48,080 bases of DNA from Chitinophagaceae bacterium (GTDB lineage: Bacteria > Bacteroidota > Bacteroidia > Chitinophagales > Chitinophagaceae), in the NCBI GenBank assembly GCA_017882215.1, contig JADGPX010000001.1, forward strand, positions 1 through 48,080. The letters are read 5' to 3'. The notes beneath the pieces are model-generated. The model saw nothing but the letters and a program-made list of their open reading frames with translations, made no database searches and was not told the DNA's origin. Shown piece after piece: positions 4,631-33,614 of the stretch. The position numbers and the translations under genes are program-made. Numbering within the stretch: position 1 is the stretch's first letter; every line of letters begins with the position of its first letter.

Positions 4631-5417
4631 TAGTAGTTTCTTTAGCAGAAGCCTTAATTATACCGCGTTTGCTACTTTTTATAAAACTAATGATTTCATT
4701 TCTTTCGTTACTTTCCGGCAATTCTTTTTCAATACATTCAAGCGCCTGCGTTATATTTAATCCTCTAAGATAGATGTAACGGTATATTTCATGGATATCA
4801 TTTATTTTTTCTGAAGTAAAACCTCTTCTTTGCAAGCCTACTGAATTAACGCCTACATAACAAAGCGGATCTCTGCCGGCTTTTATATAAGGAGGAACAT
4901 CTTTATCAATAACAGTATGCCCGGCAATATAAGTGTGAGCGCCTATTTTAGCAAATTGCGCAGCGCCTACGAGGCCACCGATAATTGCATGATCGCCTAT
5001 TTCAACATGACCGGCTAATTGTACAGTGTTGGCTAAAATAACATAGTCGCCCAAAATACAATCATGCGCTATGTGAGTATACGCCATCAAAAGACAATGA
5101 CTGCCGATGACAGTTTTCCATTTATCTTTTGTGCCCCTGTTTATGGTAACAGATTCTCTTATTGTTGTATGGTCGCCAATTTCAACTGTAGTTTCTTCTC
5201 CTACAAATTTCAGATCCTGCGGAATTGCGCCTATAACTGCACCCGGAAAAACACGACTCGATTTACCAATTGTTGTGCCTTTAAGAATGGTAGCATGAGA
5301 CATGATATGTGTACCATCGCCAATGGTTACGCCATCTTCAATAACTGCAAAGGAATCTATTGTTACATTATTTCCTATGCTGGCAGCAGGGTCTATATGG
5401 GCAAGAGAGCTGATCAT
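4620..5417 (-). CDS. lpxA: UDP-N-acetylglucosamine O-acyltransferase
   Basis: Hexapeptide repeats, PQDLKF, HIAHDC, LAGHV; lpx operon context. Confidence 0.95.
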   Translation of the reverse strand: MISSLAHIDPAASIGNNVTIDSFAVIEDGVTIGDGTHIMSHATILKGTTIGKSSRVFPGAVIGAIPQDLKFVGEETTVEIGDHTTIRESVTINRGTKDKWKTVIGSHCLLMAYTHIAHDCILGDYVILANTVQLAGHVEIGDHAIIGGLVGAAQFAKIGAHTYIAGHTVIDKDVPPYIKAGRDPLCYVGVNSVGLQRRGFTSEKINDIHEIYRYIYLRGLNITQALECIEKELPESNERNEIISFIKSSKRGIIKASAKETTNED

Positions 5418-17371: not shown

Positions 17372-17453
17372 GCCCATGTGGTGAAATTGGCAGACACGTC
17401 AGACTTAGGATCTGATGCCGCAAGGTATGGGGGTTCGAGTCCCTCCATGGGCA
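17372..17453 (+). tRNA. tRNA-Leu (anticodon TAG)
   Basis: Acceptor GCCCATG/CATGGGC-A, D arm TGG, anticodon stem TCAGA-CTTAGGA-TCTGA, long variable arm, GGTTCGAGTCC; TACTTTTG promoter at 17352-17359. Confidence 0.95.
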
Positions 17454-17463
17454 CATCGCCAAA

Positions 17464-18927: not shown

Positions 18928-18930
18928 AAC

Positions 18931-19046
18931 TGTCAGTTGTGAGTTGTGAGTTGTCAGCCTGCCTGTCCGGTAGGCAGGTAATCAATAAGCCATTTAGTCA
19001 TTAAATCATTATATATTTATTTGTATACCCCTTTAGGGGATAGGGG
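18931..19046. repeat. Composite repeat locus: TGTSAGT heptamers, a 21-nt palindromic element (18958-18978), octamers and a family B hairpin (19028-19046)
   Basis: TGTCAGT TGTGAGT TGTGAGT TGTCAG[CCTGCCTGTCCGGTAGGCAGG]T...CCCCTTTAGGGGATAGGGG. Confidence 0.85.
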
Positions 19047-19100
19047 TACAATATTTGGGAACTTCAATTCAATATAAATTTCTTCTACTAAATTATACAT

Positions 19101-19799
19101 ATGAACCAGGGAAAAGAATTTGAAAAATTCGCCATAAAACATCAGGGTATCAGCAGCCATACTTTGCATGATTACATCCAACATAATGTAACCAATCTTA
19201 CTCCGAATATCATTGAAGAAAGACCAATGAACATTGCTGTAATGGATGTTTACAGCCGTTTGATGATGGACAGAATAATTTTTTTGGGGTATCCTGTATC
19301 TGATGAGGTTGCAAATATTATTACAGCCCAGCTATTATTTTTAGAAAGTACTGACCGCACAAGAGATATTCAGCTCTATATAAATTCTCCCGGTGGCAGT
19401 GTATATGCAGGCCTTGGCTTGTATGACACAATGCAATTTGTAAGTCCGGATATTGCTACTATTTGTACAGGTATGGCAGCAAGTATGGCAGCAGTTTTAA
19501 TGGCTGCAGGCGCACCGGGAAAACGTACTGCATTAAAACATGCACGTATCATGATGCATCAGCCAAGTGCCGGTGCAATGGGGCAGGCAAGTGATGTGGA
19601 GATAACCGTAAATGAAGTAAGAAAAGTAAAGCAGGAATTATATGAAGTACTTTCAACTCATACAGGGCAAACCGTAGAAAAAGTTGCTAAAGACTGCAAC
19701 CGTGATTACTGGATGACAGCTCCGGAAGCAAAAGATTATGGTTTGGTAGATGAAGTTTTATTGATCAATTCAAAAAAAGAAAAAAAATTAAAGCCTTAA
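19101..19799 (+). CDS. clpP: ATP-dependent Clp protease proteolytic subunit
   Basis: [38 protein letters not shown]. Confidence 0.95.
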
Positions 19800-19801
19800 G
19801 T

Positions 19802-20428
19802 ATGAATTTTTATAATAAACAATTTATAAGATTGGAAGAAGAAGAAGAAGAGCCAAAAGAGATTCCGGAAAATCCTATGGAGAAAATGATGGGAGGGATG
19901 ATGTTTGATAAAAAATTTATTGAGCAGAGAAAAATCTTTTTATGGGGAGTTGTGGATGATAAAAGCGCCAAAGATATTACGAACCGTCTTTTATATTTAG
20001 AAGCTACCGACCCCGGAAAAGAGATAACATTCTATATTAATTCACCTGGTGGTGTAATTACAAGCGGTATGGTAATTTATGATACCATGAAAATGATCTC
20101 TTCTCCTGTAAGTACTGTATGCATGGGCATAGCAGCAAGTATGGGAAGTATTTTATTAAGTGGCGGCGAAAAAGGAAAGCGATTTATTTATCCTCATGGA
20201 GAAGTAATGATACACCAGCCAAGCGGCGGCGGACAAGGCACTAGTGCCGACCTGGAAATAATGGCTATACAAATTTTAAAAGCAAAACAATTAGGCGCAA
20301 GAATATTGGCAGAAAATTGCGGACAATCTTACGATAAAGTGATGGAAGATTTTGATCGTGATTACTGGATGGATGCAAATGAGAGTATGACCTACGGCAT
20401 TGTAGATGGAATAATGGATAAATTCTAA
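19802..20428 (+). CDS. clpP: Second, divergent Clp protease proteolytic subunit
   Basis: YINSPGG, AASMGS, VMIHQP, RDYW; catalytic triad intact. Confidence 0.9.
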
Positions 20429-20430
20429 AA

Positions 20431-20558
20431 CCCCAACCCCTAATGAGAAATTCGGGAAGCATCGTTATAAGTTAAAATCTTGTCTCTCCTTTGTACCAGA
20501 GCAAACCATTTCGTATTTTTACAATCTTTTAAAAAATAAATTCCTTTAGGGGATAGGG
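20431..20558. repeat. Facing degenerate family B copies bracketing the clpP2-clpX spacer
   Basis: CCCCAACCCCTAA (20431) and TTCCTTTAGGGGATAGGG (20541-20558). Confidence 0.6.
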
Positions 20559-20561
20559 TTT

Positions 20562-21800
20562 ATGGCTAAACAACAAACTTTACATTGTTCATTTTGCGGC
20601 AGGAACCGTGATGAGGTAAAAATTCTTATCGCAGGTCAGGAAGGGCATATTTGCGAGAATTGCGTTGAGCATGCCCAGGAGATCATCGGGCAGGAAATGA
20701 TACATCAGCCGGATAAATCTGCAGTTACATCTAATTATAAGCTTTCAGTTAAAAAGCCAATGGAATTAAAAAAATTCCTTGATGAATATGTAATTGCCCA
20801 GGATGATGCAAAGAAAGTTTTAGCTGTGGCGGTGTACAATCATTACAAGCGGATGAATCAAAAAATTGATAACGATGTAGAGATTGAAAAGAGCAATATT
20901 ATTATGGTTGGTGAAACAGGTACCGGAAAAACTTTACTGGCTAAAACAATAGCCAGGGTGCTTAATGTTCCGTTTGCCATTGTTGATGCTACCGTTTTCA
21001 CAGAAGCCGGTTATGTCGGTGAAGATGTAGAAAGTATTCTTAGCCGTTTATTACAGGTTTGTAACTATGATGTTGCTGCTGCTGAAAAAGGTATTGTATA
21101 TATTGATGAGATTGATAAGATTGCCCGTAAAAGCGATAATCCAAGCATCACAAGAGATGTTAGTGGCGAAGGTGTTCAGCAAGGGTTACTTAAACTTTTG
21201 GAAGGTACAGATGTATTGGTGCCACCACAGGGCGGAAGAAAACATCCTGAACAAAAACTGGTAAAATTAAACACCAGCAACATCTTATTTATTTGCGGTG
21301 GTGCGTTTGACGGAGTTGACAGGTTGATTGCACGCAGGATGAATACCAATGCAATTGGCTTTAATGTAAATAAAGACCAGCAGGAATATCAGCGCAAAAA
21401 TTTATTGCAATTTGTAAACGCACAGGATCTTAAAGCATTTGGTTTAATACCTGAATTGCTTGGAAGATTGCCTGTTATAACATATTTAAATCCACTGGAT
21501 GCTATCACTTTGCGCAGCATATTAACCGAGCCTAAAAATTCTCTTATTAAGCAATATGTAAGATTATTTGAGATAGAGGGAATAGAACTTATTATAGACA
21601 ATGATGTTTATGATTTCATGGTTGAAAAAGCTATGGAATATAAATTGGGCGCCCGCGGGCTTCGCAGTATTTGCGAAAGCATTCTCACCGATGCAATGTA
21701 TGAGCTCCCATCTCAAAAAGTAAAGAGTTTCCATCTTACTATGGAATATGCTAATCGTAAATTCAATATCAGTAAACTAAGCATTCTTAAAGTAGCGTAG
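20562..21800 (+). CDS. clpX: ATP-dependent Clp protease ATP-binding subunit
   Basis: CSFCG..ICENC zinc-binding domain, [32 protein letters not shown] loop, GARGLR. Confidence 0.95.
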
Positions 21801-21836
21801 TATTTGTTTGTACTTAGCTTTTGTGCTACTATTAAG

Positions 21837-21858
21837 CATCGTTGGCACTCACTTGTGC
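21837..21858 (-). repeat. Dispersed intergenic repeat, copy 2 (family E)
   Basis: Minus strand GCACAAGTGAGTGCCAACGATG aligns with 9376-9399 with one substitution and two deletions. Confidence 0.5.
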
Positions 21859-21980
21859 TGCATACCAATATTCAGCCTCTTCTTTTTCCACTATTTCCAA
21901 ACAATGCAGAAATATAAACTGCATTTACTTTTTTTCATTTTATTTTTACCAAACTTAACAAATAAGAATTCAGAAATCAT

Positions 21981-23246
21981 ATGGTAGATGTTATTCTCGG
22001 CTTACAATTTGGCGATGAAGGCAAAGGAAAAATTGTAGATTATTTTGCGAAAGGCTACGATGTTATTGCCCGTTTCCAGGGCGGACCAAATGCAGGTCAT
22101 ACCTTATATGTAGATGGCAAAAAAATTGTTCTGCATCAAATTCCTTCCGGAATTTTTCATGAAAATAAAATTAACCTTATCGGCAATGGTGTTGTTCTTG
22201 ACGCTGTTATCTTAAAAAAAGAGTGTGAGTCAGTTGCAGCAATGGGAATTGATTATAGAAAAAATCTTTTCATCAGTCAGCGGGCACATCTGATATTACC
22301 AACCCACCGTGCACTTGATAAAGCAAGTGAAGCATCAAAAGGCAATGAAAAAATTGGCTCTACTCTAAGAGGAATAAGTCCTGCTTATATGGATAAGACC
22401 GGTCGTAACGGTTTACGGGTTGGTGACGTGCTTGACAAAAGCTTTACAACACAATACATCCGGTTAAGATTAAAGCATCAAAAGCTTTTAGAAAATTTTT
22501 CTTTTAATGAAGATATTTCTGCCTGGGAAGAAGAATTTTTTGAAGCCCTTGAATTTTTAAAAGAGCTGCAAATTGTGAATGGAGAATATTTTATAAACAA
22601 TAAAATTCAGCAAGGCAAAAAAGTATTAGCCGAAGGTGCGCAGGGAAGCATGCTGGATGTTGATTTTGGCACGTTTCCCTATGTTACATCTTCCAATACT
22701 ATATCTGCAGGTGTTTGTTCAGGGCTTGGTGTTGCTCCGCAAAAGATAAAAGAGATACTGGGTGTTACCAAGGCATATTGCACCAGAGTAGGCAGTGGTC
22801 CGTTCCCTACAGAATTAAATGATGAAACAGGAGAGCTGTTAAGAAAAACCGGTAATGAATTTGGAAGTACTACCGGCCGTCCCCGCCGCTGTGGCTGGAT
22901 AGATCTTGTTGCCTTAAAGTTTGCCTGCATGATAAATGGGGTAACGCAATTGGTTATGACCAAGGCTGATATTTTAGATTCTTTGGATACGTTGCAGGTA
23001 TGTAATTCGTATAAAATAGATAATAAAGAAATTGATGAAATTCCTTTTCAGATGTTGAGAATGAATGTTGAACCGGTATACCAAACTTTTGAAGGATGGA
23101 AAACAGATATAACATCAGTAAAAAGTTTTGAGGAGTTACCTTCTAAAATGAAAGTGTATATAAATTACCTAAATGAAACTTTAAAAATTCCTGTAAAATT
23201 TATTTCCAATGGTCCGGGGAGTGACCAGCTTATTGTGGCATTATGA
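21981..23246 (+). CDS. purA: Adenylosuccinate synthetase
   Basis: QFGDEGKGK, GGPNAGHT, EGAQG, GSTTGRPRRCGW. Confidence 0.97.
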   Translation: MVDVILGLQFGDEGKGKIVDYFAKGYDVIARFQGGPNAGHTLYVDGKKIVLHQIPSGIFHENKINLIGNGVVLDAVILKKECESVAAMGIDYRKNLFISQRAHLILPTHRALDKASEASKGNEKIGSTLRGISPAYMDKTGRNGLRVGDVLDKSFTTQYIRLRLKHQKLLENFSFNEDISAWEEEFFEALEFLKELQIVNGEYFINNKIQQGKKVLAEGAQGSMLDVDFGTFPYVTSSNTISAGVCSGLGVAPQKIKEILGVTKAYCTRVGSGPFPTELNDETGELLRKTGNEFGSTTGRPRRCGWIDLVALKFACMINGVTQLVMTKADILDSLDTLQVCNSYKIDNKEIDEIPFQMLRMNVEPVYQTFEGWKTDITSVKSFEELPSKMKVYINYLNETLKIPVKFISNGPGSDQLIVAL

Positions 23247-23352
23247 TTGCGGCTTGGCAACCGTATTGAATTAAAATCTTAAAAAAAATATTTAAATATT
23301 TTTGGCTAATTGAAAAACTCGTAGAAATTTTACATTATTAATCCCATTGAAT

Positions 23353-23754
23353 ATGAAATCAAAATTTGATAAGGATAAAAAGACTTCAGCAAAAAAATCT
23401 TTTTCTGATGACGATGATATTACTTCGAAAAAGGCATCTTCAAAATCTGAAACAGACGAAGATGATGATGATATGGATGAGAAACCTTTAAAAAAAGGAA
23501 AGGCATCAGCAAAAAAAGGAAGAGGTGATGACGATGATGACGATGTTGAAGATGATTGGGAAAAAGCGGATGATGACGATTACGATCCTGATTTTGAAGA
23601 ATTTGATATTCCAAAATCAAAAATAAAAACAGGACCCTCAAAAAAAGGTAAAGGCGATGATGATGATCTTGGTCTTGATGATGACTTTAAAACGCTTGAC
23701 CTTTTTAATGAGGGTACAGGAGGTGTAGATGATGATGAGGATGATGATTTTTAA
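23353..23754 (+). CDS. Low-complexity Asp/Lys-rich hypothetical protein
   Basis: Open frame with alternating poly-D and K-rich blocks around a WEKADDDDYDPDFEEFDIPKSK core. Confidence 0.7.
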   Translation: MKSKFDKDKKTSAKKSFSDDDDITSKKASSKSETDEDDDDMDEKPLKKGKASAKKGRGDDDDDDVEDDWEKADDDDYDPDFEEFDIPKSKIKTGPSKKGKGDDDDLGLDDDFKTLDLFNEGTGGVDDDEDDDF

Positions 23755-23784
23755 TTGATCCACATCCTCTTGCGATAAAAAATA

Positions 23785-25092
23785 GTGAATAGAAAGTTTA
23801 CATCTTATCAGGTAAATAATTTTATTGAGTGTAAAACTAAAATGTTGAATTGGGCAAAACAGTTCAACATTTTTTGTTTGCTTGATAATCATCAATATAA
23901 TTTTTCCGATTCGCAATTCGAATGTTTATTGGCAGCAGGCTCAGTTAAAACGCTGCAATCTACACCTGGTAATGCTTTTGAAGGTTTACAAGAATTTGTT
24001 CAGGAGGAGCAGGATTGGATATTCGGTCATCTTGGCTATGATCTTAAAAATGAGATCGAGAATTTATCTTCTAAAAATTTTGATGGTATTCAATTTCCTG
24101 ACCTATTCTTTTTTGTACCACAAATTATTTTAATTCTAAAAGAAAATAAGTTAGAGATTGGTGTTATTGATAAAGACGCTGATGTTATTTTTAATGCAAT
24201 TCTTTCAACATCTGCAAGCTCTTTACCCATACGATCTAAACCTCAGAAAATAAAAAGCAGATTTTCTAAAGAAGAATATTTAAGCGCTGTTAAGCATATT
24301 CAGCAGCATATTCTTCGCGGAGATTGTTATGAAATAAATTTTTGCCAGGAATTTTATGCCGAAAATTGCGAAATCGATCCCTTAGATATTTATTTAAAAC
24401 TTAGTCGGCTTTCTCCAAATCCTTTTGCCGGATTTTATAAGCTTAATGATAAATTTTTAGTGTGCTCCAGTCCGGAAAGATTTTTAAAGAGGCTTGGCAA
24501 TAAAATATTTTCCCAGCCAATAAAAGGAACATCTAAAAGAAATTTAAATAATGTAAAAGAAGATGAAAGAAATAAAAAGAAATTATCCCGGAACAAAAAA
24601 GAGATCTCGGAAAATGTAATGGTGGTAGATTTAGTGCGTAATGATCTTAGTAAAGTATGTATAGAAGGATCGGTTAAAGTGGAAGAGCTTTTTGGGCTTT
24701 ATACATTTCCGCAGGTTCATCAAATGATCTCAACTGTATGCGGAACAATTGATAAACATGCCAGCCTTTCTGATATTTTAAAAGCCACCTTTCCCATGGG
24801 TTCTATGACTGGTGTTCCTAAAAAAAGTGTAATGCATTTGATAGAGAAGTATGAAAAAACAAAGCGTGGTTTATTTTCAGGTGCAATTGGATACATAACG
24901 CCTGAAGGAGACCTGCCTGCCGGACAGGCAGGTTTTGATTTTAATGTAGTGATACGGAGTATACTTTATAATTCAACCAATAAATATGTAAGTATGCAGG
25001 CAGGTTCGGCAATTACTTTTTATAGTGAGGCAGAAAGAGAATATGAAGAATGCCTGGTAAAAATTGAAGCGATGAAAAAAGTACTGAAGTGA
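23785..25092 (+). CDS. pabB: Aminodeoxychorismate synthase component I / anthranilate synthase component I family, with a 7-aa insertion
   Basis: SSPERF, PIKGT, ENVMVVDLVRNDL, FPMGSMTG, FNVVIRS, EYEE; LPAGQAG insert. Confidence 0.85.
   Translation: MNRKFTSYQVNNFIECKTKMLNWAKQFNIFCLLDNHQYNFSDSQFECLLAAGSVKTLQSTPGNAFEGLQEFVQEEQDWIFGHLGYDLKNEIENLSSKNFDGIQFPDLFFFVPQIILILKENKLEIGVIDKDADVIFNAILSTSASSLPIRSKPQKIKSRFSKEEYLSAVKHIQQHILRGDCYEINFCQEFYAENCEIDPLDIYLKLSRLSPNPFAGFYKLNDKFLVCSSPERFLKRLGNKIFSQPIKGTSKRNLNNVKEDERNKKKLSRNKKEISENVMVVDLVRNDLSKVCIEGSVKVEELFGLYTFPQVHQMISTVCGTIDKHASLSDILKATFPMGSMTGVPKKSVMHLIEKYEKTKRGLFSGAIGYITPEGDLPAGQAGFDFNVVIRSILYNSTNKYVSMQAGSAITFYSEAEREYEECLVKIEAMKKVLK
24912..24932. 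mobile_element. 21-nt palindromic mini-element inserted in frame in pabB (family A)
   Basis: CCTGCCTGCCGGACAGGCAGG, exact reverse complement of the copy at 32731-32751; removal restores GGA GAT TTT GAT (GDFDFNVVIR). Confidence 0.85.
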
Positions 25093-26250
25093 TTATTTTT
25101 TCTTTTTGAACATTTTCTGATCAGGATAAACCGTTTTAGTTTCGGTATTAACTGTATTCAATAAAACATGCACACATTCATTAAGAATAGGATATTTATT
25201 GGCTACAAAAAGATCCATTTTATCAGAAGGTAATCTAAGGTCGAATCCTTCACCTGAAGACATTACCATATCAAAGCCCGGATTTAAACGATTAAATTCT
25301 ATGATATCCATAGAAAGATTTTTCGCAATAATTACTGAATTATATTTTCCGGAAATATTCAGTACTTCAGAATTATTAGCATCTTCCTGCGAAACAGTAG
25401 ATTTAAATACATTATTGCCAGCTCTTAATGTTGAATAATCCATATTACCGGAAGTGGTGTTATCACCAGCTTCCATAATATAATGCGTGGCAATAAATTT
25501 CTTTACATGATTGCGGGATTCTTCCGGCAAATAATATTGTAAAGCCCAAAAATTTCTTGATCCGCTTTGCCTGATAGCGCTGTAAACTCTTGCAGGACCA
25601 CCGTTATAGGCTGCAATTACAAGCAACCAATCTTTTAGATCTTTATATAAAGTGAGCAAATATCTTGCTGCAGCATTGGTGCTTTTAAAATAATCTGTTC
25701 TTTCGTCAATAAATCCATTTACCTGTAATCCATAATCTTTTGCAGTATAGCTCATAAACTGCCAGGGGCCACGGGCACCTACCCACGATGTAGCGTTTGA
25801 ATTTAAATTACTTTCAATAACAGCCAGGTATTTTAATTCTTTGGGTAAGCCATATTGAGTAAGAATATTATCAATAAAATTAAATTTTAAAGATGCTGTG
25901 CTTTTTAATTTTTGCAGATAACTTCCATGCGCCTGTAAATAATCCTGCATATAACTTTCAGCATAAGGATTTACCTGGGACGAATAAGGCATTGTTGAAT
26001 TGTAGGAATAATTTTTAAAAAGATTCTTAAAGCCATATTTAGTTTCCTGGCTCAGGTATTGGATCTTTTCTTTTTTAGGAAGTTCCCTGGATTTTAATAT
26101 TTCATCAATTGCTTCATCTTCCGAATCAGCTGATTTTACTATCGTATCTGTTAAAGATTTTTGCAAAGGATTTTTATCCCCAAAATTTTTTGCAGAAGAA
26201 CTGTATTGTAATACAATTAAAAAGAAAGATATGGATAGAAATCTTTTCAT
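25093..26250 (-). CDS. Lytic transglycosylase (SLT domain, MltD-like)
   Basis: LAVIESNL, GPWQFM, AAYNGG, ESRNHV. Confidence 0.9.
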   Translation of the reverse strand: MKRFLSISFFLIVLQYSSSAKNFGDKNPLQKSLTDTIVKSADSEDEAIDEILKSRELPKKEKIQYLSQETKYGFKNLFKNYSYNSTMPYSSQVNPYAESYMQDYLQAHGSYLQKLKSTASLKFNFIDNILTQYGLPKELKYLAVIESNLNSNATSWVGARGPWQFMSYTAKDYGLQVNGFIDERTDYFKSTNAAARYLLTLYKDLKDWLLVIAAYNGGPARVYSAIRQSGSRNFWALQYYLPEESRNHVKKFIATHYIMEAGDNTTSGNMDYSTLRAGNNVFKSTVSQEDANNSEVLNISGKYNSVIIAKNLSMDIIEFNRLNPGFDMVMSSGEGFDLRLPSDKMDLFVANKYPILNECVHVLLNTVNTETKTVYPDQKMFKKKK

Positions 26251-27737
26251 GCCGTTTTATAATCCTTTAATAGCCTGTTTGAAATTTGCAGCAAAGTTAC
26301 TTCATTGTACTTATCTGACATAATCTGAACGCCAAAAGGCATGTTATTAAAGTGTTTAAATAACGGCAGAGAAATTGCCGGAATGCCGGTAAGATTGGCA
26401 AATACCGTATAAATATCAGCCAAATACGTTGCTACCGGATCTTTTTCCATTGTGCCAATATTTAACGCAGTAGCAGGTACTGTTGGTATAAGGATGGCAT
26501 CAAAATCTTTGAAGATCTTTTTTGTTTGGTCAACCAATAGCCTTCTAACCTGTTGAGCTTTAGTAAAATATGCTTCATAATAACCTGAGCTTAAAACAAA
26601 AGTCCCTAACATTATTCTGCGTTTCACTTCCTTTCCAAAACCTTTTGTACGAGCTTTAGTATACATATCTGTAAGATTGATATCTGGATTTCCTTCTCTA
26701 TAGCCAAAACGTACACCATCGTATCGGGATAAATTGCTTGATGCTTCTGCAGTGGCTAAAACATAATAAGCAGGCACTATATAATCCAACAATTCAAAAT
26801 CAATTCCCTTTACTTCATACCCATCTGCTCTTAATTTTTTAATAAGGTCTTCTATGCTATTTTTTATTTCAGGATCAAGAGAAGGATGATCCAAAGCATT
26901 TTTAAAATAAGCAAATTTACATCTTGGATTATTATCAGTTGAAGAACTAAATTTTTCTAATTTTTTATTGGAAACCGTGCTATCATAGTCATCTTCTCCC
27001 GAAATAACTTCTAATACTAAAGCCACATCTTCTATATTATTTCCAAAAATTCCGATCTGGTCAAAAGAGGAAGCGTAGGCAATTAATCCATGCCTGGAAA
27101 CTCTGCCATAAGTAGGTTTCAAGCCGATTATTCCGCAAAAATCTGCCGGTTGCCTTACGGAACCTCCTGTATCACTTCCCAGGCTTATCATACACAAAAC
27201 AGCCTGTACAGCTACTGCAGAGCCACCTGAAGAGCCGCCCGGGACCTTTGTTTCATCTAATGCGTTTAAGACCTTTCCATAAGCAGAATTTTCATTAGTG
27301 CTGCCCATTGCGAATTCATCGCAATTGCAATTGCCTATAATTATAGCATCTTCTGCCAATAATTTTTCAACTACAGTTGAATTATAAACAGAGGTAAAGC
27401 CCCGTCCGACCGAGTCATCCCCGTCCGTACCGGCACGGGCAGGCGGGCGGGCTTTTAAAATATTGGATGCTGCACTTACCTTGTGGTCTTTATAACAGAT
27501 AACATCCTTAAGTGCTACAACAACTCCATAAAGTTTTCCTAAAGACTTCCCGTTGATTCTTTTTGCATCTAACTCCTTTGCCCTTTCTATACTTTCTTCT
27601 TCATAAACTTCAATAAAAGCATTAAGGTGTTTGAAATCCCTGATCTTATTAAGAAAATATTTTACAGCATTCTCACAACCATTTTTATCGTTTGCAAGTT
27701 CTTGCTGGTATTGTTGTATAGTTTTGCTTTGATACAA
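26247..27737 (-). CDS. gatA: Asp/Glu-tRNA amidotransferase subunit A, with a 17-aa insertion
   Basis: VALKD, DEFAMGST, PGGSSGGSA, GSDTGGSVRQPA, SSNLSRYDG, EVKRRIMLGT; TTG start. Confidence 0.95.
   Translation of the reverse strand: MYQSKTIQQYQQELANDKNGCENAVKYFLNKIRDFKHLNAFIEVYEEESIERAKELDAKRINGKSLGKLYGVVVALKDVICYKDHKVSAASNILKARPPARAGTDGDDSVGRGFTSVYNSTVVEKLLAEDAIIIGNCNCDEFAMGSTNENSAYGKVLNALDETKVPGGSSGGSAVAVQAVLCMISLGSDTGGSVRQPADFCGIIGLKPTYGRVSRHGLIAYASSFDQIGIFGNNIEDVALVLEVISGEDDYDSTVSNKKLEKFSSSTDNNPRCKFAYFKNALDHPSLDPEIKNSIEDLIKKLRADGYEVKGIDFELLDYIVPAYYVLATAEASSNLSRYDGVRFGYREGNPDINLTDMYTKARTKGFGKEVKRRIMLGTFVLSSGYYEAYFTKAQQVRRLLVDQTKKIFKDFDAILIPTVPATALNIGTMEKDPVATYLADIYTVFANLTGIPAISLPLFKHFNNMPFGVQIMSDKYNEVTLLQISNRLLKDYKTA
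27401..27451. mobile_element. 51-nt nested palindromic insertion in gatA: a 27-nt element interrupted by a 24-nt element (family A variants)
   Basis: Minus strand AAAG[CCCGCCCG(CCTGCCCGTGCCGGTACGGACGGG)GATGACTCGGTCGGACGGG]GCTTT; removal restores AAA GGC TTT (ILKGFTS). Confidence 0.85.
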
Positions 27738-27757
27738 TTTATCAGATACTAATTAAT

Positions 27758-27811
27758 AAAAATCGGCTGAAGCGCAGGAAAATCCAAATGGATATCGAAC
27801 ACTTCAGCCGA
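27758..27811 (-). terminator. Long stem-loop plus U-tract between tatA and gatA
   Basis: TCGGCTGAAG (27763-27772) / CTTCAGCCGA (27802-27811), followed by TTTTT on the minus strand. Confidence 0.55.
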
Positions 27812-27832
27812 ATCTATTTTTAAAAAAAATAA

Positions 27833-28165
27833 TTATTTGGGCAATTCAGTTTGATATTGCGTTTGCTGCGCCTGTTGCGCTTGCTGTACTTTTGCCTGAG
27901 CCTGCAATAATCTTTCCTGCGCCTGTTTTAATTCAAGTTCAGCGTCCTGCTCTTTTTTTTCCTTCTCATTCATGCCGGCTTCAATCTCATTTTTTACATT
28001 TGTTTTGGCATCATTAAATTCACGAACGCCGCGTCCGATGCCTCTCATAAGATCAGGAATTTTTTTACCTCCAAAAAATAATAAAACAACTAAAAGTATT
28101 AATATCCATTCTGAGCCGCCCGGCATTGAAAGAAGAAAATAAGTGTTTAAAAAAGTAAGTAACAT
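27833..28165 (-). CDS. tatA: Twin-arginine translocase TatA/TatE subunit
   Basis: [35 protein letters not shown]. Confidence 0.92.
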
Positions 28166-28281
28166 AATTTTAAAATTAGAAGTTCAAAGATACATTATTT
28201 AGATAAGCTATTCATAAACCTGCTAAAATGCCCATCATTTAATTATTTACGAAATAATATAAAGATCAGATGTACAATTTT

Positions 28282-28404
28282 TTATTTAATGTATAATCTG
28301 CGGCATTTCTGTTTACCACTGGCAGCTTCATAGGTGGTTAGCCCCCGGGCACAACTTCCTAAGATTAATGCTGAGAACAGAGCAATAACTAATATTTTTT
28401 TCAT
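28282..28404 (-). CDS. Small (40 aa) putative lipoprotein, absent from the ORF track
   Basis: MKKILVIALFSALILGSCARGLTTYEAASGKQKCRRLYIK; signal peptide with lipobox LGSC. Confidence 0.7.
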   Translation of the reverse strand: MKKILVIALFSALILGSCARGLTTYEAASGKQKCRRLYIK

Positions 28405-28464
28405 CTTAATAATATGACAGAGGTAAATAAATAGTTTGTTGAAAAATGAAGCTCAATATTAAAT

Positions 28465-28491
28465 AAAAAACCGAAAGCTCATAGCTTCCGG
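28465..28491 (-). terminator. Intrinsic terminator of rplS
   Basis: Minus strand CCGGAAGCT-ATG-AGCTTTCGG followed by TTTTTT. Confidence 0.75.
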
Positions 28492-28517
28492 TTAAACATT
28501 ATAAATCTATTAAGATA

Positions 28518-28868
28518 TTATTTCATTCTTTTTTCCTTAATACGGGCACTTTTACCGCTTCTTTCACGGAGGAAATACAATTTAGCACGGCGTACTTTAC
28601 CAACTTTGTGCAATTGAATGCTATCAATATTAGGGGAATACAATGGAAATAAACGCTCAACGCCAATACCATCGCTTATTTTGCGGACAGTGAATGTTGC
28701 TGTACCACCTTCGCCCTGGCGTTTAATAACATCCCCTTTAAAACTCTGGATACGCTCTTTATTGCCTTCCTGAATTTTATAGTTAACCGTAATATTATCA
28801 CCGGCTTTAAATTTTGGCAGTTCTTTCTTTACAGTTAATTGTTCGTGTACAAACGCTATGGCATTCAT
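28518..28868 (-). CDS. rplS: 50S ribosomal protein L19
   Basis: [40 protein letters not shown]; TACCTTTG promoter at 28888-28895. Confidence 0.97.
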
Positions 28869-28907
28869 GACTTTAATTTTAAGGGTGCAAAGGTAAGGAA
28901 AAGTTTA

Positions 28908-30470
28908 TTATCTCGCTATGTTTATAGCTCTCTTTTCTCTTATTACTGTAACCTTTATTTGCCCCGGATAAGTCATTTCAGTTTGAATTTTCTGGGCTAT
29001 CTCAAAACTTAGTTTGTCACTATCACCATCTGATACTTTATCTGCTTCAACAATTACCCTCAATTCACGACCAGCCTGAATGGCGTAAGCTTTTTCAACG
29101 CCAGGATAAACTAATGCAAGATTTTCAAGATCCTTGATACGTTGCAGGTATTGCTGCATTATTTCCCGGCGTGCACCTGGTCTTGCACCACTCATGGAGT
29201 CACATGCCTGAACAATGGGGGAGATAACATATTCCATTTCCACTTCATCGTGGTGAGCGCCAATGGCATTGCAAACCGCAGGATTTTCACCATATTTTTC
29301 CGCCAGTTTCATTCCAAGTAAAGCATGGCTTAATTCTGTTTCTTCATCTGGCACTTTGCCTATATCATGTAAAAGACCTGCACGTTTGGCGAGTTTCGCA
29401 TTCATGCCAAGTTCAGCCGCCATTATTCCGCAAAGATTTGCTACCTCACGACTGTGCATTAATAAGTTTTGACCGTAAGAAGAGCGGAAACGCATCTTAC
29501 CAACTATACGAACCAGTTCTTTATGCAAGCCATGAATGCCTAATTCAATTACAGTGCGTTCGCCAATCTCTATAATTTGATCTTCTAATTGTTTACGTGT
29601 TTTTTCCACCACTTCTTCAATACGTGCAGGATGAATACGTCCATCAGCTACTAAACGTTGTAAAGAAAGTCTTGCAATCTCACGGCGTAAGGGATCAAAT
29701 GATGACAAAATGATTGCTTCAGGAGTATCATCAACAATAAGATCCACGCCGGTAGCGGCTTCTATGGCACGAATATTTCTTCCTTCCCTGCCAATGATAG
29801 AGCCTTTTATTTCATCGCTTTCAAGATTAAAAACAGTTATAGCATTTTCAATTGCCTGCTCCGCCGCTGTGCGTTGTATGGTTTGAATAATTAATTTTCT
29901 GGCTTCTTTATTTGCCCTGAGTTTTGCATCATCAATAATTTCCTGCTGTATAATAAGCGCCTGAGAATGTGCTTCCTGTTTCAGGCTTTCTATTAATTGT
30001 GCCTTTGCTTCTTCAGCAGAAAGACCTGCAACTTTTTCAAGTCTGCGGATGTGTTCTTCCTGGTGCTTTTCAAGTTCAGTTCGCTTAATATTTACCACTT
30101 CAAGCTGGCGGGTAAGATTTTCTTTTATAACCTCATTATCTTTAATGATTTTGGCAATACTCTGATCTTTTTGATTTACTGATTGTTCTTTTTGTTTAAG
30201 ACGGTTCTCAGCTTCACTCAATTTTTGGTTGCGTTGAAACACTTCTTTATCATGGTCAGCCTTTAATTGAACAAACGTTTCTCTGGCTTCCAGCAGTTTT
30301 TCTTTTTTTAATGTTTCAGCCTGTGTTTTTGTGTCGGAAATAATTTTTTGTGCCTGTTGCTCTGCTTCTTCTACCTGTTTTTTTATGTTTTTTGCAAAGA
30401 TGAATTTACCCAGTAGAATACCTATTATTAATGCGGCGGCACCAATTATTATTGGAAGTATTTGTGTCAT
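28908..30470 (-). CDS. rny: Ribonuclease Y
   Basis: N-terminal TM, coiled coil, KH ([10 protein letters not shown]), HD (LLHDIGK), [10 protein letters not shown]. Confidence 0.95.
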
Positions 30471-30598
30471 TGATAATTAATGTTTTAAAACGGTTCATAA
30501 TCTTTTACTACTTAATCCACTTATACTCAAATGAGAATCGTGATAAAACGAAGATAAATAAAAACTGTGGAAATTAATGGACAATCTAAAGATAGGTA

Positions 30599-30886
30599 TT
30601 ATAGAACCTTATCTATTTGATGCTCTATACCCGATAGTATTTTTTCAAATTCGCTTTCCAGTTGCTGGTTATTTCCTGTAGATGCGGCTTGTGTGGCATA
30701 CCATATTAATACCATTGCAATGTAATCCTGCATATCCTTTCCGGCAAACTGGGTTTTAAATTCAATTATTTTATCGTTAATTATTTTTAAGGTCTTCCGG
30801 ATTATTTCTTCGTCTTTAGACAGACTTTTTATGCGATAGGTTCTGTCGCCGATTAAAATATTTATTGGTATGAGTTCTTCTGCCAT
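30599..30886 (-). CDS. zapA: Cell division protein ZapA
   Basis: INILIGDRTYRI..EE.IR..KDMQDYIAM; pheT-zapB-like-zapA-rny synteny. Confidence 0.85.
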   Translation of the reverse strand: MAEELIPINILIGDRTYRIKSLSKDEEIIRKTLKIINDKIIEFKTQFAGKDMQDYIAMVLIWYATQAASTGNNQQLESEFEKILSGIEHQIDKVL

Positions 30887-30888
30887 AA

Positions 30889-31176
30889 CTAATCACTTAG
30901 CAATCCAATGCATTTATCAATCTCTTTTATATATTGGTTAATTCGCTTTTCAAATTCTTTTTGATCAGCTTCGGTCATTTGCCCGGAGGCAGCTTTTAAA
31001 ATATTTACTTTTTGATCAAGTTCGTATAATGTAGATTTATAATCCTCTTCTTTTTGCCTGAGTTTTTTTACCTCATCATTTAAATTGCCATTTTCTTTTT
31101 TTAAGGCAACATGTTTTTTTAATAACTGCTGAAGTTTTTCATTAATTAATTTGATATGTGCTTCAAGATTATTCAT
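30889..31176 (-). CDS. Coiled-coil protein (ZapB-like)
   Basis: Heptad coiled coil, C-terminal IKEIDKCIGLL; upstream of zapA. Confidence 0.7.
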   Translation of the reverse strand: MNNLEAHIKLINEKLQQLLKKHVALKKENGNLNDEVKKLRQKEEDYKSTLYELDQKVNILKAASGQMTEADQKEFEKRINQYIKEIDKCIGLLSD

Positions 31177-33614
31177 TAAGAGGCTTTTCTTATTTCTGCG
31201 CCTAATTCTTTTTCATAAGATACAATTATTTTATTCATCATTGCATCAATCTCTTTATCAGTAAGTGTTTTTTCTTTGTCAGAAAAAGTAAAACTAACTG
31301 CAAGAGATCTTTTATCCTGTCCTAATTTTTCGCTTTCAAAAATATCAAACAATTTAATGTTAACCAGTTTAGAAATGTTTAAAGACTTAATTAAGCTTTC
31401 CACATTTTCATAAGAAATATTTTTATTCACTATCATCGATATATCTCTTTGTACTTCCGGATATTTTGATATTTCTGAAAATTCAATTTTTACTTTCTTA
31501 GCAAATCCTGTTAATTTTCCCCAATTTATATCAGCAAAAAAAACAGGTTGTTTTATAGAGAATTGTTCAAGTTTGTTTTTATCTACAGTATTTATTTGTG
31601 CAACTAATTCATCGTTAACAAAAGCATTGAGAGAAGAATCAGAAATTTTAAAACTTATATTATCAACTTCTGATGACTGAAATAATTTTTCGCAAACGCC
31701 TTTTACAAAATAAATGTCTGCTTTGGTTTCTTTGCCCCTCCAGCCAAGTTGATTTTTATTTCCGGAAGCATATAAACATAAATGTTCTTCTTCATTGTAA
31801 TTGCCTATACCTGAAGTTGAATAAGCTTTTCCAAATTCAAATAACAGCAGGTCATTGTTTTTGTGATTGATATTATGTGCCACACATTCCAATCCTGTTT
31901 CTAAAAGAGCAGGTCGCATAACATCCAACGCTACGCTTAAATTATTTAGAAGCTTTACTGTTGAATGTAAAACCTCTTCTTTATAATATGCACTGTTAGT
32001 TATTGAGTTGGTAAGTATTTCTGAAAATCCAAGTCCTATTAAATAATTGGCAATTTTTTCTTTGTATGCAAATTCAAATCCTGCGGTTTCCACAGCCGGT
32101 GAAATTGTTATCGCTGATGGAATTTCAACATTATCATATCCATCAATCCTCATTATTTCTTCAATAATATCCGCCGGCAAAGTAATATCCGGTTTACTAA
32201 ATGGCACTGCGATGCGAAGGTCATCCAATCCTTCTTTCAATATCTCAAAATCCAGGCTTTGTAAAATATTTTTTATTGTATCAGGATGATAATTTTTTCC
32301 GCTTATTTTTTTCAGGTAATGATTTCTTAAAACAACTTCTGTTTTCTCTTTCGGGCTTGGATAAACATCAACAACGTCCGATGCTATTTCTCCGCCTGCT
32401 AATTCTTTTATCATAATTGCAGCTCTTTTAAGAACATTAACTGTATTGCTTATATCAACACCTTTCTCAAAACGGTTTGAGGCATCGGTTCTTAAATTAT
32501 GCAGCAAAGAAGTTCTTCTTATAGATTTTGGTTCAAACCAGGCGCTCTCTAAAAAAATATTTTTTGTAGTTTCTTTCACGCTACTCTTAATTCCACCGAA
32601 AACACCACCGAAACACATGGGCTCTTCATCTCCATTGCATATCATAAGATCCTCTGCATTCAATTTTCTTTCTTTTTCATCTAATGTTATAAAGGCTGTT
32701 CCCGCTGCAAGATTTTTTACAATTATTTTACCTGCCTGTCCGGCAGGCAGGTTGCCTTTTATTTTATCAGCATCAAAAGCATGTAAAGGTTGCCCGGTTT
32801 CATGCAGAATATAATTAGTGATATCAACTATATTATTTATTGGACGAACACCAATACTTTTTAATTTTTGTTGCAGCCATTTAGGGCTTTCCTTAACTTT
32901 TATATTGCTTATGCTAACGCCTGAATATCGCTGGCAAGCTTCTTTGTTTTCTATAATAACTTCAATTGGTAATTTATGGTTATCAACTTTAAAATTATTT
33001 TTAAAAGGCGATTTTATTGGAGCACTTTTTTTATTATGATGAGATAAATAAGCATACACATCTTTTGCCACACCCAGATGACTCATTGCATCCATTCGGT
33101 TGGGAGTAATACCTAATTCAAATATCCAATCTGCATAAGGATTAAAATATACTGAAGCTTCACTTCCAACTTCAACATCATTCGGTAAAACTATAATGCC
33201 TTCATGGCTTTCTCCTATTCCTATCTCATCTTCAGCGCATATCATTCCCTGACTTTCGTAGCCGCGGATCTTTGCTTTTTTCATCGTCACCGGTTCACCC
33301 TTTAAAGGATGCAATGTAGTGCCAACTGTTGCAACCACTACCTTTTGCCCTGCAGAAACGTTTGGTGCGCCGCAAACAATTTGAAGCTCACCATTTCCGG
33401 TATTTACTTTTGTAAGTTTTAATTTATCAGCTTCAGGATGTTTTATACATTCTGTTACTTCACCAATTATCAATCCTTCTAACCCGCCTTTTACTTCTTC
33501 ATATTTTTCCAGGCTTTCCACTTCAAGCCCTACAGAAGTTAAGATGCTGCTTAATTTTTCAGGTTCCGGAATCTCCGGTATATATTCACTAAGCCAATTG
33601 TAACTGATTTTCAT
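31176..33614 (-). CDS. pheT: Phenylalanine-tRNA ligase beta subunit, with a 7-aa insertion
   Basis: MKISYNWL, HPEADKL, IVCGAPN, TPNRMD, NNIVDITNY, GQPLHAFD, RFEKGVD, C-terminal FDX-ACB domain. Confidence 0.97.
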   Translation of the reverse strand: MKISYNWLSEYIPEIPEPEKLSSILTSVGLEVESLEKYEEVKGGLEGLIIGEVTECIKHPEADKLKLTKVNTGNGELQIVCGAPNVSAGQKVVVATVGTTLHPLKGEPVTMKKAKIRGYESQGMICAEDEIGIGESHEGIIVLPNDVEVGSEASVYFNPYADWIFELGITPNRMDAMSHLGVAKDVYAYLSHHNKKSAPIKSPFKNNFKVDNHKLPIEVIIENKEACQRYSGVSISNIKVKESPKWLQQKLKSIGVRPINNIVDITNYILHETGQPLHAFDADKIKGNLPAGQAGKIIVKNLAAGTAFITLDEKERKLNAEDLMICNGDEEPMCFGGVFGGIKSSVKETTKNIFLESAWFEPKSIRRTSLLHNLRTDASNRFEKGVDISNTVNVLKRAAIMIKELAGGEIASDVVDVYPSPKEKTEVVLRNHYLKKISGKNYHPDTIKNILQSLDFEILKEGLDDLRIAVPFSKPDITLPADIIEEIMRIDGYDNVEIPSAITISPAVETAGFEFAYKEKIANYLIGLGFSEILTNSITNSAYYKEEVLHSTVKLLNNLSVALDVMRPALLETGLECVAHNINHKNNDLLLFEFGKAYSTSGIGNYNEEEHLCLYASGNKNQLGWRGKETKADIYFVKGVCEKLFQSSEVDNISFKISDSSLNAFVNDELVAQINTVDKNKLEQFSIKQPVFFADINWGKLTGFAKKVKIEFSEISKYPEVQRDISMIVNKNISYENVESLIKSLNISKLVNIKLFDIFESEKLGQDKRSLAVSFTFSDKEKTLTDKEIDAMMNKIIVSYEKELGAEIRKAS
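32731..32751. mobile_element. 21-nt palindromic mini-element inserted in frame in pheT (family A)
   Basis: CCTGCCTGTCCGGCAGGCAGG; removal restores AAA GGC AAT AAA ATA (DKIKGNKIIVK). Confidence 0.85.

Follow-up and report, generated by a model that had tools for sequence, protein, structure and literature searches.

Five very small hairpin elements lie in a stretch of 48,080 nucleotides (nt) from a Chitinophagaceae bacterium (GenBank assembly GCA_017882215.1, contig JADGPX010000001.1, positions 1 to 48,080; hereafter the window), one of them between genes and four within pabB, gatA and pheT. They belong to a family of 19-29-nt units that are inserted precisely, without duplication of the target, and are kept in genes if the reading frame is kept. 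The inserts are under frame selection, are present or absent at the same site within one species, and the hairpin is linked across phyla to a nuclease gene and to tRNA genes; with moderate confidence, the elements are regarded as mobilised by small GIY-YIG nucleases with a single domain, whose genes lie in tRNA-lodged cassettes together with a hairpin of the same family. The elements of the window and their host genes are listed here (^, point of insertion; ORF, open reading frame).

18958..18978, minus strand: 21-nt hairpin element, intergenic, after tig and before clpP, recognised by pattern and fold
24912..24932, plus strand: 21-nt element within pabB; peptide LPAGQAG; target GA^TT
27401..27451 (27401-27419 and 27444-27451), minus strand: outer 27-nt element within gatA; target AAG^GC
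27420..27443, minus strand: 24-nt element inside the gatA 27-mer, inserted at G^G; the genome has other nests of this kind and also 24-mers that stand alone
32731..32751, minus strand: 21-nt element within pheT, in the B3/4 domain; peptide LPAGQAG; target AA^TA
23785..25092, plus strand: host gene pabB-like (chorismate-binding enzyme); ORF open across the insert
26247..27737, minus strand: host gene gatA-like (amidase); ORF open across the 51-nt insert
31176..33614, minus strand: host gene pheT; ORF open across the insert

An initial annotation, made from the sequence of the window, had reported these five hairpins, and re-reading of the sequence found each of them in its place. The base by which one arm of the intergenic copy was said to differ is indeed a T instead of a C, and the gatA pair is nested as described, with the 24-mer inside the 27-mer. 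A hairpin fold is predicted for all five.

Precise and recent insertion

In silico removal of the inserts leaves GDFDF in pabB, KGNKII in pheT and ILKGF in gatA, and these joints align with empty sites in the orthologs; at the gatA site the orthologs read ILEN/ILKN, versus ILKGF after removal here. None of the 25 PheT orthologs covering the site carries the insert peptide (29 loci were fetched, four without coverage), and the insert is likewise absent from all four PabB and all three GatA orthologs read, five having been fetched for each; L305, L308 and L315, which gave no motif match, were left out of the ortholog counts. The comparison with relatives suggested by the initial annotation therefore finds empty sites for all three proteins, and not peptides inherited as ancestral sequence.

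The insertion in pabB can also be followed within the species. A 5,508-nt same-species contig from run X7, different at 19 bases, is missing precisely the 21 nt of the insert, which is carried by runs X8, X14, X2 and X16; since one of five same-species DNA runs is empty, the pabB site is polymorphic within the species. The intergenic element at 18958-18978 is present in 4/4 DNA runs that cover the locus, with no empty allele among these. Within the genome, 41 elements have their joined flanks elsewhere, and 22 of the 41 excise exactly at the stem feet; the comparison of a tRNA-Glu gene with its interrupted duplicate likewise gives an exact insertion at the stem feet. Target duplication is absent at A^T sites, while at G^G and C^C sites the insert could equally be described as a shorter unit that duplicates 1 nt of the target. 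The elements are thus precise inserts without target duplication that were recently turned over. The absence of duplication and the clean restored sequence, both proposed by the initial annotation, are borne out by the empty orthologs of pheT, pabB and gatA and by the empty pabB allele; its description of a very small, recently active, non-autonomous element by which essential proteins gain peptides agrees with the same findings, with the 154 loci of the genome and with the frame rescue beside some copies (see below).

Some further differences were seen between the same-species contigs and the window. The gatA element differs at 27414, 27416 and 27441, in loops and arm, with its length unchanged; multi-base differences are clustered at 20433-20454 and 25297-25312, and a 9-nt insertion and a 3-nt deletion occur (positions 23525 and 19835, respectively). 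A short heptamer-type tandem run at 18930-18957 immediately precedes the intergenic element.

The family in the whole genome

The genome searched comprises 2.95 Mb in 332 contigs, with 36% GC, in an assembly that is 93% complete; its proteins, and the habitats of the sequencing runs in which it occurs, suggest a soil-dwelling member of the Bacteroidota. A search for both arms yields 154 loci, as the initial annotation had expected in foreseeing further genomic copies. A simpler pattern gives 158 matches, versus none in the reversed and none in the complemented genome and 1, 0 and 0 in three shuffles; on account of these controls the hairpin family is not a product of chance. Single units measure 19-29 nt, and nested or clustered loci reach 75 nt; two main groups, CCTG.. 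and CCCG.., are present, and units nest in one another. By ORF calls of at least 120 amino acids, on which the split depends and which may misplace a few loci, 73 loci lie in ORFs and 81 outside.

Insertion takes place at R^Y (purine^pyrimidine), G^G or C^C steps, with A at -3 and T at +3, and the CCCG group prefers ATG^G. Six target dinucleotides are in use, among which a single cut motif was not seen. The insert stops at the feet of the stem; the flanking bases are those of the target, with no tag outside the stem. A replication-strand bias was not seen either (28 vs 24), the skew signal being weak on short contigs.

Orphan half-arms were considered as the ends of an autonomous element and rejected, those found being decayed copies or chance matches. 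Other GC-rich palindromic repeats are abundant in the genome and occur in the window at 19030-19041: CCCCTAAAGGGG has 53 counts, and the CCCCTCTCCAC..GTGGAGAGGGG type about 38. Many intergenic family members lie within such repeats.

Reading frame and translation

According to the initial annotation all lengths were multiples of three; this is true in the window, but genome-wide it fails for 57 of the 81 copies outside ORFs. Lengths divisible by three are found in 61/73 copies in ORFs vs 24/81 outside (p = 9e-12), and they are better read as what selection has let pass from a wider range of lengths, rather than as a property of the element. Twelve of the 73 copies in ORFs have other lengths; in the three that were checked, bases had been gained beside the insert, with a net change of +21 in each case. 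In the CCTG group, 20 of 30 copies divisible by three use one of the six frames (expected share 0.16, p = 7e-10), and in the CCCG group 21 of 30 frame-keeping copies use one frame (expected share 0.25), in both cases far more than the supply of targets would give. Among 126 matches to the 21-mer in other genomes 67 lie in ORFs, and 41 of these 67 use the LPxGQAG frame, the same as here. The bias to one frame fits selection on the peptide.

The inserts are likely translated. One RNA contig holds the pheT insert, a weak indication given its depth of 3.3, the 24 nt present on one side and possible DNA carry-over; no RNA contig skipping an insert was seen in RNA runs that covered fragments only and did not bridge the pabB and gatA inserts.

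A candidate partner: tRNA-lodged GIY-YIG nucleases

Crossing of GIY-YIG positions with element positions in the genomes of the genus led to a clade of genes of about 80 codons, flanked by an intact tRNA gene on one side and by its dead copy on the other. In each of the eight members of this clade from the genus, the dead tRNA-Leu copy contains the 20-mer. Among metagenome homologs, a family member is found at the cassette in 47/58 loci when the nuclease is at least 55% identical and in 9/22 below this value, with 0/80 in the reversed control. When placed on the intact tRNA of their own locus, family inserts fall at 30 distinct tRNA sites (Leu, Arg, Gly, Cys, Met) in 47/124 loci; a single ancestral insertion cannot account for these, which imply repeated independent insertion into tRNA copies. 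In Patescibacteria a strong nuclease match occurs in 5/151 genomes, four of the five with an adjoining 20-mer. More distant nucleases are accompanied by 27-29-mers at tRNA-Arg and by another 27-mer at tRNA-Glu, and the tRNA-Arg cassette site, AATG^GAT, is the consensus target of the dispersed CCCG family of this genome. Five tRNA-linked GIY-YIG cassettes are present in this genome: one holds the family and four do not, three of these holding other hairpins. As this occurs in an element-rich genome, it argues against the cassette as a simple sink.

The partner nuclease, studied in a relative and not encoded in the window, has 88 amino acids and a single domain matching PF01541. Residues Y5, Y16, R26, H30 and E62 are invariant in 34 nuclease sequences. 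Its best sequence matches are the UPF0213 structures 1ywl and 1zg2; the structural model (pLDDT 91.6) has as nearest folds 1zg2 (UPF0213) and then Slx1, none at E<=0.001. The mobilising enzyme that the initial annotation took to be encoded elsewhere finds a candidate in this clade, in that a GIY-YIG nuclease was one of the enzymes it listed and is tied to the hairpin, which it would move; its other proposal, a RAYT/TnpA, is less well supported, with no copy within 400 nt of any of the five Y1 matches of this genome.

Several related arrangements were observed. Small GIY-YIG genes form tandem arrays with a 345-360-nt period at G043:C23:204413-209659 (15 copies), G126:C8:275031-276642 (5 copies) and G119:C5:696103-697363 (4 copies), and the units of the G119 array (L386) contain a 3' fragment of tRNA-Glu that bears a 27-nt hairpin. 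Other GIY-YIG/tRNA cassettes have unrelated mini-hairpins in the dead tRNA, replacing an arm or inside it (G000 C283, C329 and C186; L349, L371, L373, L377 and L382). Family members of 28, 25 and 20 nt are found in dead tRNA-Arg-like copies at G000:C200:9400-9800 and at G000:C29:14230-14400 and 4960-5120; at G000:C29 one such copy follows a C-terminal GIY-YIG fragment, likely as a decayed cassette. In the window, an intact tRNA-Leu(tag) is found at 17372-17454, upstream of tig, with no adjoining ORF of at least 90 amino acids.

Other enzymes were also tried as candidates and rejected. No element copy lies within 400 nt of the 5 Y1, 11 four-helix-bundle and 4 GxxExxY matches of this genome; one of four DUF559 matches has copies within this distance, inside the DUF559 ORF itself. 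Small ORFs beside intergenic copies are mostly housekeeping genes, and family counts do not discriminate between genomes (Y1 in 118/127 genus genomes, GIY-YIG of all kinds in 127/127). Among 429 small ORFs near viral and cross-phylum 20/21-mers there were two GIY-motif matches, one of them real, and a viral scan with the nuclease alignment gave one weak match.

Distribution across genomes and phyla

The 20/21-mer pattern is matched in 70/127 genomes of the genus and 61/261 of the order, with no match in reversed controls; the unpublished G050-G052 are counted in the genus tallies. About 5,800 of the stretches stored in the species collection are estimated to contain the exact 21-mer. Represented among the first 80 of these records are Bacteroidota, with cultured isolates among them, Patescibacteria, Nitrospirota, Omnitrophota, Chloroflexota, Planctomycetota, a deltaproteobacterium and a Woesearchaeote. 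There are also matches in 119 viral stretches. In G136, copies ride in group II intron reverse transcriptase loci (L322, L332, L333) and in regions resembling the insertion sequence (IS) IS66 (L321, L329), as labelled from the translations; these larger mobile elements are a possible second vehicle between hosts.

Proposed mechanism and alternative explanations

We infer that the hairpin is moved by the GIY-YIG nuclease. The enzyme would bind its own hairpin in single-stranded or cruciform DNA and, by analogy to the nuclease SsnA, would cut at or near the stem feet. The freed hairpin, with its two ends side by side, could then be joined by host ligation or repair into a nicked R^Y, G^G or C^C step, without duplication, and the sister chromosome would serve to restore the donor site. 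Between phyla the hairpin would travel with the cassette, and the 21- and 27-nt forms may represent loop variants persisting in genes, mostly in one frame, where they would provide a Gly/Pro/Ala/Asp-rich peptide, likely a tolerated loop. More tentatively, and with chances that appear somewhat below even, the system may represent a transposase-free class of mobile DNA, in which 20-29-nt hairpins are cut and re-inserted by nucleases of about 80 amino acids residing in duplicated tRNA genes, with one hairpin for each nuclease clade.

In support of the nuclease link, the hairpin type follows the nuclease clade, and unrelated hairpins also group by clade, in a tree from which the motif used missed the tRNA-Arg-type nucleases. 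The clade co-occurs with the element in 6/20 element-rich genomes vs 1/107 others in the genus, and in 7/16 vs 9/245 in the order (element-rich meaning at least 8 matches, our own cut-off, counted by hand from tables; G051 is among the 20). A number of points, however, weigh against the link. Kin are not independent, so that Fisher values overstate this co-occurrence, and the nuclease tree was a quick one with many open forks. A member of the 20-mer clade is absent from this assembly, itself 93% complete, with a best match of 37% identity; only the tRNA-Glu cassette with a 27-mer is present, together with the tail of a GIY-YIG gene next to a dead tRNA copy whose 20-mer is decayed. At the cut-off used, the clade is lacking in 9/16 element-rich genomes of the order and in the near-complete G136, and 4/16 clade-bearing genomes have no exact element match. 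None of 80 cassette loci holds a 21-mer, and the commonest cassette site, A^A, is used by 0/50 dispersed CCTG copies here and 2/126 elsewhere. Secondary structure is not enriched at the target sites, as judged from empty sites vs background (p = 0.85 coding, 0.13 intergenic). GIY-YIG enzymes are hydrolytic nucleases and are not known to perform strand transfer; such a nuclease accounts for cutting and not for joining, for which host ligation is assumed. Moreover, SsnA cuts only upstream of its own hairpin (PMC11893778).

In a different reading, judged unlikely but of appreciable weight, the hairpin is the cut site of the nuclease, driving recombination of tRNA copies and spread of the cassette. 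Dispersal would be due to another enzyme, for example an HUH Y1/RAYT, and cassette, group II introns and IS would only carry the hairpin between hosts. Insertion without duplication fits HUH chemistry, and Y1 genes are widespread in the genus (118/127 genomes), while many element-rich genomes lack the GIY-YIG clade; the G136 copies inside group II intron and IS66-like regions and the tandem arrays of tRNA-GIY-YIG units can be explained in the same way. Dispersal by a Y1 enzyme is however disfavoured by the five Y1 matches of this genome, none with a copy within 400 nt, by the lack of a tag outside the stem and of a single cut motif among the six target dinucleotides, and by the element-bearing, incomplete genomes G138 and G088, which have no Y1 match.

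Movement through RNA, by reverse transcription or RNA-templated conversion, would account for the sense bias in ORFs (54 sense vs 12 antisense) and for the many inserts in tRNA copies and intron regions; a similar idea has reportedly been proposed for the small dispersed repeats (SDRs) of Nostoc. It is considered improbable, as intergenic copies between co-directional genes have no strand bias (13 sense vs 14 antisense) and the bias in genes is toward one frame, not merely one strand, which fits peptide selection. Still less probable is that the inserts are lost or bypassed in the RNA or during translation, leaving the proteins unchanged: the 12/73 copies of other lengths in open frames could suggest it, but lengths divisible by three are enriched, compensating bases accompany all three copies checked, and the RNA contigs, weak as this evidence is, include one that retains the pheT insert and none with a skip. 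An assembly or library artefact, or an ancestral protein sequence, is given next to no probability. The same 21-mer in unrelated, mostly metagenome-assembled genomes might raise the suspicion of an artefact; however, DNA runs from several studies have the same inserts in the same positions, the 21-mer is also present in cultured isolates, and frame selection and empty orthologs speak against both possibilities.

If such a transposase-free class exists, few known mobile units would be as small as these hairpins; identical in sequence from bacterial phyla to archaea, they would also offer a steady supply of ready-made loops of 7-9 residues in core proteins. The entry of very small repeats, such as SDRs and Rickettsia palindromic elements (RPEs), into genes is an open question, and no enzyme has been tied to them so far; a defined 20-nt hairpin and a defined 88-amino-acid nuclease form a pair that is testable in vitro. 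Should the link hold, the Ssn hairpin-nuclease pairs would be extended from cutting to precise insertion, and recurring short in-frame indels in core genes would be explained. It would also be a caution that peptides of this kind are poor phylogenetic characters, because the same insert arises independently across phyla.

Comparison with known systems

Among the closest known systems are the Ssn nucleases (SsnA, cd10448) and the NTS/SRM hairpin repeats with which they pair, described by Chenal et al. (2025; PMC11893778); SsnA is a single-domain GIY-YIG enzyme that cuts single-stranded DNA beside its own hairpin. In both systems a small gene for a single-domain GIY-YIG protein lies next to its own hairpin, the catalytic Y/Y/E is conserved (Y5, Y16 and E62 here), the hairpin type varies with the enzyme and the hairpin is dispersed in numerous copies; the Ssn authors suggested a mobile origin. 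Unlike the Ssn repeats, none of the 154 elements matches the SRM consensus with its oriented flank, only 1/80 cassette loci has any SRM match, and no conserved flank exists outside the stem; the elements are mostly in genes, versus 2% for NTS. The nuclease is here lodged in duplicated tRNA genes, whereas the main text of PMC11893778 does not mention tRNA, and the precise insertion of a bare hairpin is not described in the part of that paper available to us. The system works like the Ssn pairs, yet it is not assigned to them, because the SRM consensus failed and the elements are mostly in genes and tied to tRNA duplicates.

The Nostoc SDRs of Elhai et al. (2008) are said to be cyanobacterial repeats of 21-27 nt, some in coding regions, with no enzyme identified. 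The elements resemble them in size: SDRs, which are also cited in PMC3116915, are according to PMC2884548 very small and potentially mobile, with a length of about 20 bp. Like the elements here, the RPEs are inserted in frame in functional genes; these palindromic repeats (PMC10969869, PMC3733652) are about 150 bp long and described from one genus, in contrast to units of 19-29 nt and many phyla here. The REP/REPIN-RAYT systems, for which non-autonomous spread was proposed, also have short hairpins tied to a small enzyme gene (PMC3116915, PMC3733652); however, the elements here lack the GTAG/CGTC foot tag, are single units and not doublets, are mostly intragenic, and flank 0/5 Y1 matches. Miniature inverted-repeat transposable elements are larger (70-300 bp vs 19-29 nt), and no target-site duplication accompanies the elements at A^T sites. 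The Slx1-like/UPF0213 GIY-YIG proteins provide the best sequence and fold matches of the partner nuclease, while an association with tRNA cassettes or hairpins is not described in the accessible part of PMC1564403. A literature search, which was not exhaustive and excluded supplements, found no description of the element, the peptides or the tRNA cassette; the supplements of PMC11893778 and PMC3733652 might list related repeats. Taken together, the combination is of the hairpin-plus-small-enzyme kind, real and recently mobile, with a concrete candidate enzyme.

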